A stretch of DNA of 64,000 bases. Source: Candidatus Shapirobacteria bacterium. GTDB taxonomy: Bacteria > Patescibacteriota > Microgenomatia > UBA12405. Below are positions 3,445-64,000 of this stretch, piece by piece. Numbering within the stretch: the stretch's first letter is position 1; the number at the start of each line of letters is the position of its first letter. The DNA lies in NCBI GenBank assembly GCA_037142555.1, contig JBAXAJ010000001.1:14835-78834 (forward strand), given 5' to 3'. The position numbers and the translations under genes were made by a program. A model generated the notes under the pieces. It was given only the letters and a program-made list of their open reading frames with translations. It had not been told where the DNA came from and did no database searches.

Positions 3445-4839
3445 ATGAGTAAAGAGAGTACACAGTTAATGGCGATTAGTCCAATAGACGGTCGTTATGC
3501 AGAGAAGGTAGAGGAGTTATCACCAATCATGAGCGAAGGAGGATTGATTCAACGTCGAATTAAAGCAGAATGTGTTTACTTTTTAATGTTGTCAGATTAT
3601 GGCATCACTAGGAAATTAACATCTTTTGAAAGGAAACTTATAGAAAAAGTTATTTCTAAAGGGATAACTTTAAAGGACATGATGAGAATCAAAGAACTTG
3701 AGAAAGAAAAAAATCATGATGTTAAAGCAGTTGAATCTTGGCTAGTAGAGCATTTTAAAAGTACTTCTATTAGTGATTTAGTAGACTATTTTCATTTTTG
3801 TTTGACATCTGAGGACATTAATAATATTAGTTATAGGTTGCAACTTAAAGATGCAAAGGATGAAATTATTGTTCCTAAAATTGACGAAATCATTGATTCA
3901 CTTATGAAAATGGCAATAGAACTTTCAAGGATGCCAATGCTAGGGAGAACTCATGGTCAAGCTGCTGTTCCAACTACGGTTGGGAAAGAACTATCTAATT
4001 TTGCTGTTAGGTTAAATAAAGAAAATAGAAAATTAGAAAAATTCATGTTGACGGGTAAGATTAACGGAGCAGTAGGGAACTATAACGCTATTAATTTTAT
4101 CGCTCCAAATATTAATCTTTTTCCTTTTTCTGAAACTTATGTTTCAAGATTAGGTTTAGAGCTTAATTTATTTACAACCCAAATCAATGCGCCGGAAGAC
4201 ATTGTTGAATGTTTGCAAATTTTACAAAGAATCAACGGAATTTTAGTGGATTTATGTCAAGACATGTGGAGATATATCTCCGATGACTGGTTTAAACAAC
4301 AAAAGAAAGCTGGGGAAGTCGGATCATCAACAATGCCTCAAAAAGTAAATCCAATTGACTTCGAGAATGGAGAAGCAAACTTGCAAATGGCAAATTCAAT
4401 TATTTCTGGATTTGTTAACAAGTTACAAATTTCTCGTCTTCAAAGAGATTTGACTGACAGCTCAACATTGCGTAATCTCGGAACAATTTTAGCTCACATT
4501 TTAGTTGCTTGTAAAAGTACTATGAAAGGTTTAAGTAAAGTTTCACTGAATGAAGAAGCAACTTCAGCTGCTTTGGCTAAAAATTGGGCTATATTGTCTG
4601 AACCAGTTCAGTTAATTTTGAAAAAATATTCAAATGTTGAGGATGCCTACAGCCTTGTAAAAGACTTTTTCCGTGGTGAGTATATTTTCAAAAAAGAGTA
4701 TCAAGAATATATTGGAACTCTTCCATTAGAATCAGACATCAAAGAAAGACTGATGGGTTTGACTCCTGTAAACTATATTGGTATCGCACCAGAATTAGTT
4801 GAAGAAGCAGACTATCAAATCAAGAAATCTCGAAAGTAA
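3445..4839 (+). CDS. purB: Adenylosuccinate lyase
   Basis: GRYAEKVEEL, TSEDINN and GRTHGQAAVPTTVGKE motifs of the fumarate-lyase / PurB family. I place the start at the ATG at 3445, which is preceded by a GGAAAGGTGA Shine-Dalgarno sequence. The ORF track extends to a GTG at 3436. Confidence 0.9.
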   Translation: MSKESTQLMAISPIDGRYAEKVEELSPIMSEGGLIQRRIKAECVYFLMLSDYGITRKLTSFERKLIEKVISKGITLKDMMRIKELEKEKNHDVKAVESWLVEHFKSTSISDLVDYFHFCLTSEDINNISYRLQLKDAKDEIIVPKIDEIIDSLMKMAIELSRMPMLGRTHGQAAVPTTVGKELSNFAVRLNKENRKLEKFMLTGKINGAVGNYNAINFIAPNINLFPFSETYVSRLGLELNLFTTQINAPEDIVECLQILQRINGILVDLCQDMWRYISDDWFKQQKKAGEVGSSTMPQKVNPIDFENGEANLQMANSIISGFVNKLQISRLQRDLTDSSTLRNLGTILAHILVACKSTMKGLSKVSLNEEATSAALAKNWAILSEPVQLILKKYSNVEDAYSLVKDFFRGEYIFKKEYQEYIGTLPLESDIKERLMGLTPVNYIGIAPELVEEADYQIKKSRK

Positions 4840-5746: not shown

Positions 5747-7084
5747 ATGTTCAAATTCTTCGCAAGATTTTTTGTCACTCTAATATTTCTATCTCTAATA
5801 ACTTTAGTTATTTTTAATTTCTTTTTTAAAGAACAAATAGTTCCTATCTCTGGAACTGGTTCTATGTATCCAACTTTCCCAAAACATGAGTCAACCACTA
5901 AAATGATGGTCTATCCTAGTGGCGTTAAATTATTTGATAAAACATTTTTTGATTATAAAATTGGCCACGGAGACATTGTTGCTTTTGAAAATGAAGAAAC
6001 TAAAAAAAACACCAAAGAACTATATGGAAAGGAAAGTGGTTATATAAAAAGAGTAATTGCTCTTCCAGGCGACACTATTGAAATCAGAGATGCGCTCATA
6101 ATTTTAAATTCTTCACCTTTAAAAGAACCATACACTGCCCTAGCCAGATCAACTTTTGGCGGTAATTTTTTGTCAGATTGCCATTCCCTAAAAATTCCAG
6201 AAGGAAAATTATTTGTGATGGGGGACAATCGTAAAGGCAGCAGCGATTCTCGTTATGAGCTAGGTCTAATTGATTTCAAAGATATTAGCCATGTCATTCC
6301 ACTCTCAAAACAAATTGGGACTCTAGACAAAAATTGGCATGACACCACCAACGACTTCAAAAATTCTGCAAAAATTAAACTAGACCCACAAGAATATGTG
6401 GATCTCTTAAATCAAAAACGAAAAGAGGCTAATTTAAAAGAACTAAAATATAATCCAAAACTAAATAAATCAGCCGAACTTAGGGCACAAAACATCATAA
6501 AATTTGATGACTTTTCTTTTGAAGCCACCAGAAGTGGATACACAATAGAAAAGGCTGTAAGTGATGCTAATTATTCAAACATTGTCTATGGAGAAGTCCC
6601 AACCAGTGGTTATTATGATGCCCAAGAACTGGTCGATAACTATTTTCAATTTGCCTCTTCTAAAAAATTCATGCTTAATAAAGATTATCAGGACATTGGA
6701 ATTGCCACTGTCGAAGGCTCAATCAATGGTTGTCCAACCCAAGTTATTGTTCAACATCTAGCTGGTTATTTTCCTCCAAATTATAAAAAAGAAGATATTC
6801 AAGCTTGGCAAAATAATTTAAATAATTTAAAAGAAGTCCAAACAGGGTGGTCATCTCTAAAAGACAAAGTTGATTTTTATAATAACAATAAAAGTGATGT
6901 CGACCGACTTAATCAAATTATTAGCAATAGAATCACTAACATCAGCGCTATAGTTAAAAAAATGTCTTCAAATTTATGGTTGTCAAAACCAGAAACAGAT
7001 TATACCTATCAAGATAGAAAACTCTTTGAAGAACAACAATCTCTTTCAGATAAGATAAATAACCAAATCAAAAATATTCGATAA
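5747..7084 (+). CDS. lepB: Signal peptidase I (S26) with a ~250-aa C-terminal extension containing a degenerate CAP/SCP-like domain
   Basis: S26 boxes are present: GSMYPTF (catalytic Ser), GDIVAF, YIKRVIALPGDTIEI (catalytic Lys) and VMGDNRKGSSDSR. The C-terminal region (AELRAQNII...YGEV...ELVDNYFQF...YQDIGIATV) matches the CAP-domain pattern with His positions substituted. Confidence 0.75.
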   Translation: MFKFFARFFVTLIFLSLITLVIFNFFFKEQIVPISGTGSMYPTFPKHESTTKMMVYPSGVKLFDKTFFDYKIGHGDIVAFENEETKKNTKELYGKESGYIKRVIALPGDTIEIRDALIILNSSPLKEPYTALARSTFGGNFLSDCHSLKIPEGKLFVMGDNRKGSSDSRYELGLIDFKDISHVIPLSKQIGTLDKNWHDTTNDFKNSAKIKLDPQEYVDLLNQKRKEANLKELKYNPKLNKSAELRAQNIIKFDDFSFEATRSGYTIEKAVSDANYSNIVYGEVPTSGYYDAQELVDNYFQFASSKKFMLNKDYQDIGIATVEGSINGCPTQVIVQHLAGYFPPNYKKEDIQAWQNNLNNLKEVQTGWSSLKDKVDFYNNNKSDVDRLNQIISNRITNISAIVKKMSSNLWLSKPETDYTYQDRKLFEEQQSLSDKINNQIKNIR

Positions 7085-42626: not shown

Positions 42627-44053
42627 AAATAACACCAATAATCGGACTTGAAGTTCATGTCGAATTAAAAACTAAATCAAAAATGTTTTGCAGTTGTGAC
42701 GCTGAGCATTTTCATGTCGATCCAAACACTCACACCTGTCCAACTTGTCTTGGCCTGCCAGGTGCCCTGCCAGTTCCAAACAAAACTGCTTGTGAATGGT
42801 GTATAAAACTTGGGCTAGCTCTTGGTTGCACCCCAAATGAATCTAGCTTTTTTGAAAGAAAAAATTATTTTTATCCAGATTTAGCCAAAGGCTATCAATT
42901 AACTCAATACGAAAAACCATTTGTTATAAATGGAAAAATTAAAATAGGTGATCAAGAAATCAGAATTAATCGAGCTCACATGGAAGAAGACACTGGTAAA
43001 TCAGTCCACATCATTAAAAATAATGAAGAACTAACTTTAATTGATTACAATCGTTGTGGAGTTCCACTTGTCGAAATAGTTTCTGAACCAGATCTCACTT
43101 CGGCTCAAATGGCCAAAGATTATCTTCTTAAAATTCAACAAATAATTCGCTATTTAGGAATTTCTGACGCCGACATTGAAAAAGGTTCAATGCGTTGTGA
43201 ACCAACCATCAATTTAAAAATTGAAGATGGCGATCAAACTTTCTACACTCCACTTGCTGAAATTAAAAATGTTGCCTCTTTGACAGGTGTTCTAAATGCA
43301 GTTGATTATGAAATAAACCGTCAAACTGAAGAATTCCAAAAAACAAAAGAAACAAAATCAAAAACTAATAAAACCACTCGTGGTTGGGATGCCCAAAAAA
43401 ACCAAACTTTCTTACAACGCGAAAAAGAAGGTTCCTCAGACTATCGTTATTTTCCAGAACCAGACATTCCTCACATTGAATTCACTAAAGCCGAAATCGA
43501 AGCCATCAGAGCCACCATTTCCGAGCTCCCAGATGAAAAAATTGCTCGCTATAAAACAGATTTTGGTCTTTCTGATTATGATGCTAATTTAATTGCCCAA
43601 GATATCCAACTCGCTCAAGTTTTTGAACATGTTATAGAAATATTTAAAAACAAAGAAGACATAAAGTTATTTGTAAATTTATTTAATGGTGAATTTAGAA
43701 ATGAAGATATTAATATTGACAAAATTAAACCAGAGAATTGTCTCAAAATAGTCACAGCTCAAAATGAGTCTTTATTATCTTCAACATCAGCAAAAATAGT
43801 ATTTACAGAATCATACAGAACAGGTGAAGATCCAATTGAAATCGCCAAAAAACAGGGTCTAATTCAAGTCTCCGATTCTAGTCAAATTGAAAAAATTGCC
43901 AAAGAGGTGATTGATAACAATCCAAAAGCTGTCCAAGATTATCTTAAAAATCCTAATTCTGTTGGCTTTTTAGTCGGTCAATTAATGAAAGCTTCAAATG
44001 GCTCTGCCAACCCTCAACTGGCCAAAGAAATTCTAGAAAAGTTGTTAAAATAA
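42623..44053 (+). CDS. gatB: Glu-tRNA(Gln)/Asp-tRNA(Asn) amidotransferase subunit B
   Basis: GLEVHVELKT and CPTCLGLPGALP GatB motifs. C-terminal GatB/YqeY domain. ATGA overlap with gatA. Confidence 0.9.
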   Translation: MKITPIIGLEVHVELKTKSKMFCSCDAEHFHVDPNTHTCPTCLGLPGALPVPNKTACEWCIKLGLALGCTPNESSFFERKNYFYPDLAKGYQLTQYEKPFVINGKIKIGDQEIRINRAHMEEDTGKSVHIIKNNEELTLIDYNRCGVPLVEIVSEPDLTSAQMAKDYLLKIQQIIRYLGISDADIEKGSMRCEPTINLKIEDGDQTFYTPLAEIKNVASLTGVLNAVDYEINRQTEEFQKTKETKSKTNKTTRGWDAQKNQTFLQREKEGSSDYRYFPEPDIPHIEFTKAEIEAIRATISELPDEKIARYKTDFGLSDYDANLIAQDIQLAQVFEHVIEIFKNKEDIKLFVNLFNGEFRNEDINIDKIKPENCLKIVTAQNESLLSSTSAKIVFTESYRTGEDPIEIAKKQGLIQVSDSSQIEKIAKEVIDNNPKAVQDYLKNPNSVGFLVGQLMKASNGSANPQLAKEILEKLLK

Positions 44054-61358: not shown

Positions 61359-62147
61359 ATGAAAAACTATAAAATAGATGAAGTCAAAAATTTATTGTCC
61401 AATGCAAAAACAGCCTTAATTGCCGTTCCTCAATTGAGTGTCGACAGTGCTGGTTCTGCTCTAGCTTTAGCTATAGCTCTTAAAAAAGCTAACATTGACG
61501 CTAAAGTTTATTGTCCTCAAATCCCAGATGCTAATTATTCTAAACTTAGTGGTCTAGAACTTATTTCCAACGTTTACGAACAAAATGACTTAGTTGTCAC
61601 TTTAAACTATCCTTTGGATAAAATCGATCAAGTTTCCTACAATGATGACGGTGGTCACCTAAATTTAGTTGTTAAAACTAAAGAAGGTTCTCCAAAAGTT
61701 GAAAATGATCAAATAATCGTCAATAATCAATCAGCTCTAGCTGATGTTAATTTCATGCTTGGTGATGAATCATCTCTTGGTCCTAACACTGCCATGGTTA
61801 ACAAAGGTAACTGGATTTTTGTTTCTCCAACTAACATTCCAAAAACTTGGGCTAAAGCTACAATTGTTGATCAAGATGCTCCTTTTTCTGAAATTTTCAC
61901 CTTTTTACTTCCAATGTTAGGTCTAAAATTAGACCAAGATTCAGGTAAAAACCTTTTAATTGCTCTAAGAGTTGCTACTCAATCTTTTTCAATCAATGTT
62001 TCTCCAGAAACTTTTGAAGCTGGTGCAATTTGTTTAAGAGCTACTCAACCATCTGAAGCTGCTCCTCAAGCTGTTCAAATAACCGAACCAGTTCAAGATA
62101 ACCAAGTAAATCAATCAACTCAATTTAATTCTGTTCCAACAGTTTAA
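61359..62147 (+). CDS. Hypothetical protein, possibly a degenerate DHH/NrnA-like phosphoesterase homolog
   Basis: The N-terminal LIAVPQLSVDSAGSALALAIALKKANIDAKVY resembles the NrnA DGDALGS...L.KLGK region but lacks the second Asp. No DHH triad was found. Its position after infB matches nrnA synteny in some lineages. Confidence 0.3.
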   Translation: MKNYKIDEVKNLLSNAKTALIAVPQLSVDSAGSALALAIALKKANIDAKVYCPQIPDANYSKLSGLELISNVYEQNDLVVTLNYPLDKIDQVSYNDDGGHLNLVVKTKEGSPKVENDQIIVNNQSALADVNFMLGDESSLGPNTAMVNKGNWIFVSPTNIPKTWAKATIVDQDAPFSEIFTFLLPMLGLKLDQDSGKNLLIALRVATQSFSINVSPETFEAGAICLRATQPSEAAPQAVQITEPVQDNQVNQSTQFNSVPTV

Positions 62148-62164
62148 AAAATAAAATTTCAAAA

Positions 62165-62188
62165 GCCTCCGAGTTTCGGGGGTTTTTT
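62165..62188 (+). terminator. Intrinsic terminator after the DHH-like gene
   Basis: GCCTCCGA gtt TCGGGGG stem (7 bp including one G-U) and a T6 run. Confidence 0.65.
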
Positions 62189-62229
62189 GTGCCTTTTTTC
62201 TATATGTTAAAATCACTTGTACGTTGAAA

Positions 62230-62722
62230 ATCAGGTGTGAGAAAGTAAAAAAGAAAAAGGAGGGAAAGGTTATGAGTAATGAAATAATTACTGTGAAGAA
62301 ACACCAAATCGTCGAAGGGATGAACAGAATAGGTAAAAAACTAAACAGCAACAAAGAGGTTACTCAAAAAGTTAGAGATTTAAATGATGCTGTTTATAAA
62401 ATTAATGAACATTTACTTCTAAGAGTGGAAGACAGTGAATTCATTGATTCTTTTTTAATTTTTGTAAAAAAAATTGAAGAAAAACTTGAAGGAGTAAAAG
62501 AGCAATCAGATAATAATGAAGATTTAATATCAGTTTATTTAAAAATATTTGAAGATAATTCCCATGTTATAACTCCAAAATTCTCTGATGCTTTGTCTGT
62601 ATTCTTAACAAGAGTTAATGAAATGATTGATTAAATTTTCACTGGTGGTGTTGGGGCAATTAATATTGCTTTTGTTGTTTCAACACTACCAAACTCTCTT
62701 TCTAAAACCCCTCACACCTGAT
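62230..62722. repeat. 12-bp perfect inverted repeat pair ATCAGGTGTGAG (62230-62241) / CTCACACCTGAT (62711-62722) bracketing a single small gene
   Basis: The two copies are exact reverse complements. The GC-balanced 12-mer is unusual for this AT-rich genome. The downstream copy is followed by a T9 run. Confidence 0.5.
62272..62634 (+). CDS. Hypothetical protein (120 aa, helical, acidic)
   Basis: The ATG at 62272 is preceded by AAAGGAGGG. The track ORF from 62224 is an upstream extension. No recognisable domain. Atypical codon usage (agg, ggg, gtg). Confidence 0.45.
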   Translation: MSNEIITVKKHQIVEGMNRIGKKLNSNKEVTQKVRDLNDAVYKINEHLLLRVEDSEFIDSFLIFVKKIEEKLEGVKEQSDNNEDLISVYLKIFEDNSHVITPKFSDALSVFLTRVNEMID

Positions 62723-62757
62723 ATTTTTTTTATATAACACTAGTTTATAATTTATAT

Positions 62758-63777
62758 ATGTCAGAAAATAAAAACAGTCAGCCACCTCAAGAATTGACAG
62801 TCTCAGAACCAAGAACCATAGAATATGACATTCCTTATATACAACTTCCTCAGGGTGATCAATCTGGAGAGATGGGCCACAACGAAGCATCAAGTGAACA
62901 ATTAAAAGAGTTTTTCACACCAGAAATGATTTCTAGATTAGTATATTGTCCTCAAATTAATGTCGATCAAACCGATAATTGGGGATCTTATGGATACGAA
63001 CCAGGATACATTTTTGTAAATAGCAGTAATTATAAAGGGGCTCAAACATTTAACGATGATGAAATGTTGCACGCTGAAACTTTTGACAGTTTCACCACTA
63101 AAAATGGTTTTAATGTTCTTAAATTAGTCAAAGATCATTATGATTTTTTCCCTCAAGCTAAATTTAATACGCAAATAATAACTGCTGAAAAATATCCCAA
63201 AACTTTTATTTTTTTAAGAAACTTATTAGATGGGGTTGAACCTAATGACATATCTACATATCCAATTGAAGATTTAAATTATATGTATGAAGATCTTTGG
63301 CATGGGAAACTTGGTATTGATGTTCGCGTTGAACAAACTGAAGAATATGCAGAGGAACAAAATAATTTAATAAACGATCCAATTAATAATTTTATCCCTA
63401 CATACATTGACCATCGAGGGATAGAAGTTCCAATGCCAGAATATAATGATGACAAGGAAAAAGCAAATTTACAGAAACGTATAGAAGAGATAGATGAATG
63501 GAAGCTAGAATCACCAGGAAGGACATTAAAACGTTTGCAACTGGTGGAAGAATTTCAAAAAAGAAATTTAATTCCTAATCACAAATTTTTCGCTTCATTT
63601 GAAGAAGAAAATGACTCAATAAAAAAAGATATAGAACAAGCTAAAATAAGCGGGAATAATGAGTTAGCTGAAGGAATTGAAAACACTTTTAATAAAACAA
63701 AATTTTATTTAGAGAATAATACCTATAAAAAATTAAATCAAAACCAAGAAGATATAAAATTATTAACAGATAAATAA
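62758..63777 (+). CDS. Hypothetical protein (339 aa, acidic, soluble)
   Basis: No TM helix and no recognisable motif. Codon style is similar to the preceding small gene and to pyrF/pyrE. Confidence 0.5.
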   Translation: MSENKNSQPPQELTVSEPRTIEYDIPYIQLPQGDQSGEMGHNEASSEQLKEFFTPEMISRLVYCPQINVDQTDNWGSYGYEPGYIFVNSSNYKGAQTFNDDEMLHAETFDSFTTKNGFNVLKLVKDHYDFFPQAKFNTQIITAEKYPKTFIFLRNLLDGVEPNDISTYPIEDLNYMYEDLWHGKLGIDVRVEQTEEYAEEQNNLINDPINNFIPTYIDHRGIEVPMPEYNDDKEKANLQKRIEEIDEWKLESPGRTLKRLQLVEEFQKRNLIPNHKFFASFEEENDSIKKDIEQAKISGNNELAEGIENTFNKTKFYLENNTYKKLNQNQEDIKLLTDK

Positions 63778-63868
63778 TTTTTCATGTTATAATCAAAGCT
63801 GACTATTCGTCGGTCTTTTGGTAGCCATTCCAAAACATTAAAAATTAACCGATAATAGCCAAATATCT

Positions 63869-64000
63869 ATGGCATTAACCAAAGAAGAAAAACAAGAAAT
63901 TATTACAAAACACGCTCAAGCTAAGGGTGACACTGGTTCTCCAGAAATCCAAATTGCTATTCTAAGTAAAGAAGTCGAAAAACTCCAAGGACATCTAGGT
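63869..64000 (+). CDS. rpsO: 30S ribosomal protein S15, N-terminal 44 codons (runs off window end)
   Basis: MALTKEEKQEIITKHAQAKGDTGSPEIQIAILSKEVEKLQGHLG matches the S15 DTGS.E.Q.A.L...I..L..H motif. Confidence 0.8.
   Translation, partial: MALTKEEKQEIITKHAQAKGDTGSPEIQIAILSKEVEKLQGHLG

Follow-up and report, generated by a model that had tools for sequence, protein, structure and literature searches.

A putative closed-loop mRNA around a small-protein gene in the variable gap upstream of rpsO in Candidatus Shapirobacteria

Introduction

Two open reading frames (ORFs) recorded as hypothetical proteins, ORF1 (WCG91_00420) and ORF2 (WCG91_00425), stand between a DHH/NrnA-like gene and rpsO in a metagenome-assembled genome of Candidatus Shapirobacteria, and the first of them is bracketed by a perfect 12-nt inverted repeat. 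What does this repeat do, and how did the two genes come to lie at this place? We have addressed these questions in a stretch of 64,000 nucleotides of that genome (hereafter the window), where the gene order is hrcA-grpE-dnaK-dnaJ-nusA-infB-p262-[ORF1-ORF2]-rpsO-pnp; p262 is the name used here for the 262-aa DHH/NrnA-like gene after infB (61359-62147). A preliminary description of this DNA had proposed a small acquired cassette, either a toxin/antitoxin (TA)- or defence-like gene pair or a passenger resembling a miniature inverted-repeat transposable element (MITE), and had listed last the alternative of a transcript whose 5' and 3' ends pair. It is this last alternative that the comparative evidence favours.

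For the comparison, 14 related genome loci were fetched via infB and 80 metagenome loci via a p262 profile; they are cited below by their L numbers. The 1.7 kb between p262 and rpsO would be a lineage-specific variable islet with two independent transcription units. Unit 1 (about 62205-62731) would be a self-contained small-protein cassette, and we hold with moderate confidence that it is a closed-loop mRNA, in which a conserved helix between the 5' untranslated region (UTR) and the 3' end encloses the small-protein gene. Unit 2 would consist of ORF2, an unrelated and apparently leaderless gene gained separately at the same hotspot. All features of the window given below are on the + strand unless stated otherwise.

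Results

The arms of the inverted repeat are conserved and covary

The left arm, ATCAGGTGTGAG (62230-62241), lies in the 5' UTR of ORF1, 30 nt from its ATG, and pairs with the right arm, CTCACACCTGAT (62711-62722), its exact reverse complement in the 3' UTR, 76 nt after the stop codon. The inverted repeat noted previously around the 120-aa gene is thus real, although the coordinates that had been implied were off by one and the run that follows it is T8, not T9. Judged on the window alone the repeat is not significant: 17 perfect 12-nt inverted repeats with 20-600 nt between their arms were seen where 15.6 are expected, and the sole unusual trait of this one is its G+C content, since repeats with at least six G/C number one against an expectation of 0.125. 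The reality of the repeat therefore follows not from window statistics but from its conservation and covariation in other genomes. As a side observation, the 9-mer CAGGTGTGA has one more exact copy elsewhere in the window (42730-42738, - strand) and, with at most one mismatch, 12 matches against 5.8 expected, a number reached by 2 of 100 shuffles.

The module was first recognised 3' of p262 in four loci (L003, L004, L006 and L008), and profiles then gave further ones: in the first locus set the leader profile was found in 16 loci and the 3' element in 11, to which L116-L118 are added. All 13 distinct cassettes contain the arm core CAGGTGTG/CAC(A/G)CCTG, while the ORFs between the arms are strongly diverged. 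The arms themselves vary in concert. They read AACAGGTGTGAA/TTCACACCTGTT in L004 and L006 and AAATCAGGTGTGAA/TTCACACCTGATTT in L070 and L092, and in L076 they pair over 16 nt. The separation of the arms is 469 nt in the window and about 340-880 nt in the other cassettes.

Covariation was analysed in a MAFFT alignment of 12 cassettes (A5), with slid-partner and shuffle controls. Three column pairs of the arms change on both sides, namely 14-166 (AU:5, UA:4), 24-156 (AU:9, GC:2) and 12-168, and one U·G pair occurs in the arm helix, in L008. For the whole structure, arms and 3' UTR hairpin together, 84% of the cells are paired; sliding the 3' partners lowers this to 42-53%. The covariation score amounts to 0.191, compared with 0.123 in the shuffles, of which 0/500 attain it, and 12 pairs show double changes, a number that 4 of 500 shuffles reach. 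The more reliable part of this evidence is the slid-partner control together with the variety of pair types.

Folding gave a concordant picture. In each of the 13 model transcripts folded at full length (377-921 nt) the arm core belongs to the minimum free energy (MFE) structure, with a base-pair probability of about 1.0; the fold of the window transcript has z = -6.2, and the duplexes between 5' UTR and 3' UTR have a dG of -22.7 to -35.3 kcal/mol, with z from -2.1 to -9.

The 3' UTR hairpin (62643-62691), identified by folding and covariation, has an 18-pair stem that includes G·U pairs (62643-62660 with 62674-62691). It had been described as an 11-bp hairpin, so that it is confirmed as stronger than was claimed. 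Its region folds with a dG of -26.5 kcal/mol (z = -3.6, 0/200 shuffles as good), compensatory changes occur at 9 of 17 stem pairs across the 12 cassettes, and the apex GCAATTAATATTGC..TTG is conserved. The G·U pairs of hairpin and arms are valid on the + strand only, which points to RNA rather than duplex DNA. The comparison shows the arm helix and the hairpin to be conserved RNA-level structures of a cassette that is always found at this locus.

Organization of the cassette

The order of the parts is shared by the 13 cassettes: a terminator, an extended -10 box, an A-run, the left arm, a Shine-Dalgarno (SD) sequence, one to three small ORFs, the hairpin, a C/U-rich and G-poor spacer, the right arm and a U-rich tract. 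The terminator that precedes the window cassette (62161-62192) has a 12-pair stem (62161-62187) followed by a T-run, which bears out the earlier statement that a clean terminator follows p262, and would end the nusA-infB-p262 transcript. Such a terminator also follows p262 in L003, L004, L006, L008 and L009; there is none in the loci without insert L005, L010, L013 and L016. The putative extended -10 promoter of the cassette, TGTTAAAAT (62205-62213), is a box of the TGnTAnAAT type, and in 13/13 cassettes such a box keeps a fixed distance (-26 to -32 nt) to the left-arm core. It predicts a transcript start at about 62220.

Just 3' of the -10 box stands a conserved element (CACCAGTT, CCAGAT or CCTGTT; window 62214-62229, L006 5770-5789, L070 1723-1745) that is complementary to the left arm and covaries with it, including arm position 2 (CCAGAT with ATCAGG, CCAGTT with AACAGG). 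It may form a competing local 5' hairpin with the left arm, and it probably lies partly 5' of the transcript start.

The presumptive SD sequence of ORF1, GGAGGG (62259-62264), is 7 nt 5' of the ATG. Between the hairpin and the right arm stands the C/U-rich, G-poor spacer CTCTCTTTCT (62694-62703), generically complementary to purine-rich SD regions, and the right arm is followed by the T8 tract (62724-62731), which pairs partly with the A-run 5' of the left arm (columns 9-13 with 167-171). A U-rich tract is found 3' of the right arm in 13/13 cassettes. The hairpin apex (window 62657-62679; A5 columns 97-118) keeps GCAATTAATATTGC-ATTTTTT-GC and could fold into an alternative small hairpin with a U-run behind it. 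A reading of the hairpin as an integron attC-like site was rejected by inspection, as the order of the core sites does not fit. An Rfam scan over the cassette returned terminator-like noise only, the best match being Phe_leader over the p262 terminator (30.6 bits, threshold 55).

What the end-to-end helix might do

We propose that the 12-nt segment of the 5' UTR pairs with the 12-nt segment of the 3' end, that flanking A/U pairs lengthen the helix, and that the stable conserved hairpin and the C/U-rich spacer come to lie just inside the 3' arm. Such a helix would compact the finished transcript and shield its termini from exonucleases (RNase J at the 5' end, PNPase at the 3' end), and together with the U-tract it would fix where the transcript ends, ahead of the rpsO promoter. 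Should 3' trimming take away the right arm, the hairpin could then protect the 3' end of an mRNA that is open and more readily translated, according to the logic of the hok and aapA mRNAs.

Duplex folds of the two UTRs contain, besides the arm helix, another one in which the SD region pairs with the pyrimidine-rich spacer, in the window GGAGGG with CUCUCU, which is also part of the MFE structure. This helix suggested an occlusion of the ribosome-binding site (RBS) in the hok/aapA style, and the idea was tested in two ways. The results belong to the points that weigh against the closed-loop reading. Cognate SD x spacer duplexes are no stabler than non-cognate ones (-9.7 vs -10.6 kcal/mol, permutation 17923/20000), so that the complementarity appears to be compositional, and the predicted probability that the RBS is unpaired hardly differs between full-length and hairpin-truncated forms (0.35 vs 0.43, Wilcoxon p = 0.15); for the window the predicted values are 0.62 full-length and 0.71 after 3' truncation. 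Moreover, the 13 cassettes are related by descent, and the shuffle controls therefore overstate the significance; the covarying arm positions number only three; L003, L068 and L063 have a single arm mismatch each; and the cassette promoter, the transcript start and the 3' end are predictions from the DNA sequence. Clear burial of RBS and AUG is predicted only in L061 and in the lineage of L070, L092 and L117, whose AUG adjoins the arm (unpaired probability 0.06-0.13 vs 0.34-0.39). The models thus do not support SD occlusion as a general property of the cassette; the well-supported part is the structure, an end-to-end helix with the conserved hairpin just inside its 3' strand.

The cassette is bound to one locus

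Over 1.1 Mb from about 100 related genomes, the whole window included, the leader and 3' profiles gave one match per genome, on the + strand and solely at the p262|rpsO site. A search for further copies of the repeat-bounded element found it in a single copy in the 64-kb window and elsewhere only at this site. The cassette is restricted to one major clade of the p262 tree, where it alternates with empty sites (L006/L107 beside L010/L083). This alternation indicates repeated loss, or exchange by homologous recombination, and not transposition. Conservation does not stop at the left arm but goes on for at least 35 nt beyond it, across the promoter/terminator module, and no flanking direct repeat was reported around the element. 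With one copy per genome, always in the same locus and orientation, the notion of a MITE-like passenger finds no support; the closed-loop cassette is ancient and locus-bound, not mobile.

ORF1 belongs to a small family known only from the cassette

ORF1 (62272-62634) encodes a 120-aa protein, a divergent member of a tiny family of helical proteins of about 70 aa. It is soluble, acidic and helical (GRAVY -0.37, pI 5.2, maximum 19-residue hydropathy 0.93). Neither ORF1 nor ORF2 matched a Pfam, NCBIfam, PADLOC or PHROG family above noise, in agreement with the earlier remark that neither has a recognisable domain. A single-sequence search with ORF1 returned only ORF1 itself, and tblastn found nothing among the ORFs that lie between the arms of different cassettes. 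However distant, the family could be traced by phmmer: ORF1 and the L063 ORF are reciprocal best matches (E = 1.3e-3; best decoys 0.03), and the L063 ORF links on to L070b, L092b, L085b and L076. An alignment of seven family sequences is nearly gapless across some 75 residues and shows the pattern helix-loop-helix-(D/E)ET..L..F..I..IL; ORF1 has a C-terminal extension of 45 residues beyond this core. A profile of the cassette ORFs, searched against 5.8 billion proteins, returned 11 members only, all unnamed, and the new members whose contigs were fetched lie again between p262 and rpsO. Three close family members have dN/dS ratios of 0.09-0.13 among them, which identifies the family members as real genes. 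Hence the comparison shows the cargo as a fast-evolving family of helical proteins that is under purifying selection and so far known from this cassette alone.

Other cassettes carry different first ORFs. That of L008 (10364-10477) encodes a 37-aa hydrophobic peptide, MKNFNLLKQLIIDLLFFGLTIGSLIIMFKTMNDITYK, with a maximum hydropathy of 2.42, a product like that of a type I toxin, and the L070-type cassettes begin with an ORF that has a hydrophobic N-terminus.

ORF2 is an independent neighbour

ORF2 (62758-63777) encodes an acidic protein of 339 aa (pI 4.6) with an N-terminal alpha/beta domain and a long helical C-terminal half. A TATAAT box (62746-62751) lies 6 nt 5' of its ATG and there is no SD sequence. 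Most of the ORF2 homologues examined, among them those of L060 (5' region at ~4770-4788), L001, L120, L122, L035 and L119, likewise have a -10 box 6-10 nt 5' of the ATG and no SD, and the mRNAs of this family are probably leaderless. A word-indexed search gave three relatives of ORF2 and an exhaustive profile search 67 representative clusters, many of which consist of the N-terminal domain of about 120-140 residues alone. The AlphaFold model was poor when built from 4 sequences (pLDDT 67) and reached a pLDDT of 90.4 with 51; it shows an alpha/beta domain at about residues 45-160, followed by long helical hairpins. Conserved residues are F52, R60, C64, D70, D73, G76, G79, G83 and P132, and mostly H127-Y-D129; C64, H127 and D129 prompted the guess of a Cys-His-Asp hydrolase, which we do not put forward as a claim. 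Foldseek searches of the model against the PDB and viral structures returned helical noise only, a sequence-profile search of the PDB and searches of phages and plasmids gave no matches, and the N-terminal domain had no Pfam partner domains in ten relatives.

The full-length homologues of ORF2 occupy unrelated loci. One of them (L060, 41% identity) stands at the same hotspot, with no ORF1 cassette, and the homologues in L060, L001, L120 and L122 each have their own promoter and no ORF1. Conversely, the ORF1-type cassettes of all other cassette-bearing loci lack ORF2, and the two genes occur together in the window only. ORF1 and ORF2 are therefore best described as independent neighbours, not a pair. 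The TA- or defence-like pair of the preliminary description fails on the same ground, and no TA or defence model matched either gene. The same genes at the same place in relatives, which would have spoken against an insert, were found in part, as divergent ORF1-family cassettes and the one ORF2 homologue in L060; no relative carries both.

The gap between p262 and rpsO is a gene-turnover hotspot

The gap from p262 to rpsO ranges from 91 to 2546 nt over about 76 related loci. While nusA-infB-p262 and rpsO-pnp are kept throughout the loci compared, the content between them is unrelated and patchily distributed; the gap is a hypervariable hotspot, or islet, between core genes in Shapirobacteria. 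In 18 loci it consists solely of the ~92-nt rpsO promoter and leader, as near-identical spacers of 91-93 nt. The closest relatives of the window on the p262 tree have no insert (the gap is 102 nt in L036 and 133 nt in L011), so that the stretch is accessory DNA at a site of continual turnover, not a one-off insertion.

Elsewhere the hotspot holds membrane-anchored proteins (11 loci), Cys-rich small proteins, PemK/MazF toxins and a pair of RHH and PIN proteins. PemK/MazF-like genes were found in L008 (11148-11495, - strand), L055 (4867-5295, - strand) and L063 (1732-2208, - strand), and those of L008 and L063 are oriented convergently to the cassette. The Pfam scan, made for the L008 protein, gave 26.9 bits against a cut-off of 23.1. 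The RHH-like and PIN-like pair is found in L109 (2671-3310) and L110 (5538-6177). The second major clade of the p262 tree has at the hotspot, in place of the cassette, 75-120-aa Cys-rich families with CxxC-like motifs (L044, L057, L064, L097 and L114; L073, L077, L078, L086, L087 and L110; L042 and L051). L082 contains at 5872-5964 the promoter and the first ~27 codons of an ORF2-like gene, frame-broken, just 5' of an unrelated membrane-protein gene; this remnant is the scar of a cargo replacement. In the loci inspected, the site is not marked by an integrase, a tRNA gene or direct repeats.

On its right side the variable region is bounded by the rpsO promoter TGTTATAAT (63785-63793) with its conserved leader of ~76 nt (together 63785-63869), almost invariant across Shapirobacteria and intact in the window. 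Against the Rfam S15 leader (RF00114) the leader scored below the threshold of 39.5 bits, with 14.1 bits in the window and 24.5 bits in L004 (10745-10862, E = 0.0022); it may be a divergent S15 autoregulatory leader.

The codon usage of the insert is native

The preliminary description had judged the codon usage of both genes atypical and had taken the stretch for an insert. That the stretch is extra DNA holds, relative to L036, L011 and the 18 leader-only loci; that its codons are foreign does not. The four codons AGG, GGG, TTG and GTG together amount to 33 per 1000 in ORF1 and 29.5 in ORF2, compared with 25.9 (sd 19.1) in the other 51 ORFs of the window. The leave-one-out codon log-likelihoods, -0.83 and -0.84, compare with a window mean of -0.889 (sd 0.074), and both GC3 and G3 are typical. 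It is the flanking housekeeping genes that are biased, with 3-16 per 1000 for these codons, and the codon bias of highly expressed neighbours had been mistaken for foreignness of the insert.

Neighbouring gene and source records

A profile of 13 p262 orthologues matches the NrnA structure 5jju (Rv2837c) with E = 0.018, and nine of the 13 have a Pfam DHH match (best E = 1e-4); the window p262 itself has no Pfam match. The label nrnA-like is fair, on weak grounds. The C-terminal tail of this degenerate DHH/NrnA-like protein differs among relatives, and its length ranges from 231 to 262 aa. We also noticed that several public records titled 'uncultured Gammaproteobacteria bacterium' (L005, L007, L008, L009, L013, L015 and L016) have an infB 68-83% identical to that of the window and the same synteny; these labels look wrong.

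Discussion

Two other accounts make use of the same paired ends of the RNA. The arms might be the halves of the stem of a split intrinsic terminator, with the ORF as its loop, and would serve mainly to end cassette transcripts short of the rpsO promoter, perhaps in a way that depends on ribosomes at the 5' UTR. An A-run and GC-rich stem on one side and a stem and U-rich tract on the other are indeed present in 13/13 cassettes, and no canonical local terminator stands between the cassette ORF and the next promoter; the organism uses such terminators elsewhere, as after p262. Known intrinsic terminators, however, have loops of a few nucleotides, and a helix that closes 350-890 nt is expected to form too slowly to affect the polymerase; the U-tract is weak (3-4 U of 8) in L003, L006, L076 and L049. 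We give this account a low, if appreciable, probability. The full fold-back mechanism of hok and aapA would make the closed mRNA inert until 3' trimming to the hairpin, for instance by the neighbouring PNPase, activates it, and would imply a harmful product and an undetected antisense RNA. Its layout fits, since the two ends pair, the spacer is pyrimidine-rich and resembles an anti-SD, and a protective hairpin lies shortly upstream (PMC9841398, PMC6733600); the predicted burial of RBS and AUG in the L070/L092/L117 lineage, the hydrophobic peptide that opens the L008 cassette and the TA toxins at the same hotspot also speak for it. The window ORF1, on the contrary, is a 120-aa soluble acidic protein, SD occlusion is marginal in the window, the cognate-pairing test was negative, and a sequence scan, which leaves other promoter types possible, found no conserved minus-strand -10-like box of an antisense gene in the cassettes and none at all in that of the window. 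As a whole this mechanism has the same low probability as the split terminator.

The remaining accounts place the repeats in DNA. As sites that a protein binds or that serve recombination, such as inversion or cassette exchange, or as operators of an autoregulator, they would explain why identical inverted sequences bracket a genome-variable segment at a turnover hotspot, and a concerted change of the arms could also arise through a co-evolving binding protein or gene conversion. Such a role is very unlikely, given a single orientation in all cassettes, no recombinase nearby, a left arm that apparently belongs to a transcribed leader and keeps a constant distance to the promoter, and the U·G pair of L008 and the many hairpin G·U pairs, valid in + strand RNA only. 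A recently acquired two-gene TA/defence pair, or a MITE-like passenger that ends in inverted repeats, would agree with the lack of the stretch in the nearest relatives and with the real TA toxins at the hotspot in other genomes, but it is extremely improbable in view of the native codon usage, of two genes never paired elsewhere, of the lack of TA or defence homology and of phage or plasmid relatives, and of a single-copy, locus-bound element whose conservation reaches beyond the repeats.

The closed-loop mRNA that we favour could be extended to a more daring scheme, which we consider distinctly improbable. The gene would be nested in a long-range helix that is both terminator and stabiliser; the 5'-3' pairing, set by ribosome traffic at the start site, would decide the fate of the mRNA and the read-through into rpsO-pnp; and PNPase trimming to the hairpin would reopen the mRNA. 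It would be a hok-like switch recruited for a non-toxin protein in an ultra-small bacterium of the Candidate Phyla Radiation (CPR) and coupled to the adjoining RNA-decay operon.

Some known systems share single traits with the cassette. Like Rho-independent terminators it has an A-run, a GC-rich stem and a U-tract, but the 'loop' of 350-890 nt holds a gene. The 5' and 3' flanks of rRNA pair across more than 1 kb to form processing stems cut by RNase III, a similar case in which conserved pairing of segments separated by hundreds of nucleotides encloses a functional unit; the helix described here has only 12-16 bp and brackets a predicted mRNA. As in chromosomal gene-turnover hotspots, conserved flanks (p262 and the rpsO leader) enclose variable content, including PemK/MazF and PIN toxins; unlike them, the site shows no integrase, tRNA gene or direct repeats, and one cargo type is locus-bound.

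To our knowledge, pairing of the 5' with the 3' end of whole mRNAs has been documented in bacteria almost only for type I toxin mRNAs, and we know of essentially no study of post-transcriptional control in this CPR lineage; a literature search found no paper linking Patescibacteria to long-distance mRNA interactions. The closest known analogue of the closed-loop cassette would be precisely the 5'-3' pairing of the hok and aapA toxin mRNAs. In hok, the tac/fbi stem 'strongly stabilizes the closed' full-length mRNA while a separate local element occludes the SD, and the truncated, active form is guarded against 3' exonucleases by a 3' stem-loop (PMC9841398). The window cassette resembles hok/Sok in the long-distance helix from the extreme 5' UTR to the 3' end, which would close the whole mRNA, and in a stable stem-loop just upstream of the 3' pairing segment, a potential protective 3' end after trimming (PMC9841398). 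It differs in that the window contains no small (<60 aa) hydrophobic toxin or mok-like overlapping frame, the cargo being a soluble helical protein of 70-120 aa, and in that there is no sequence or Rfam relationship. For aapA, the proposed model is that 3' truncation abolishes the 5'-3' pairing and so activates translation (PMC6733600). The likeness to aapA/IsoA of Helicobacter lies in the end pairing beside a pyrimidine-rich, SD-complementary sequence; the differences are those given for hok, and the anti-SD pairing here seems compositional, of any spacer with any SD. Besides the cassette, this work documents a hotspot beside rpsO, a locus-bound ORF1 family and a confidently modelled, unclassified ORF2 family. 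The cassette is short (~510 nt), self-contained and directly testable, and, if the closed-loop reading is true, a conserved, covarying end pairing around a small soluble protein, with no antisense partner, widens the principle so far attached to toxin mRNAs.

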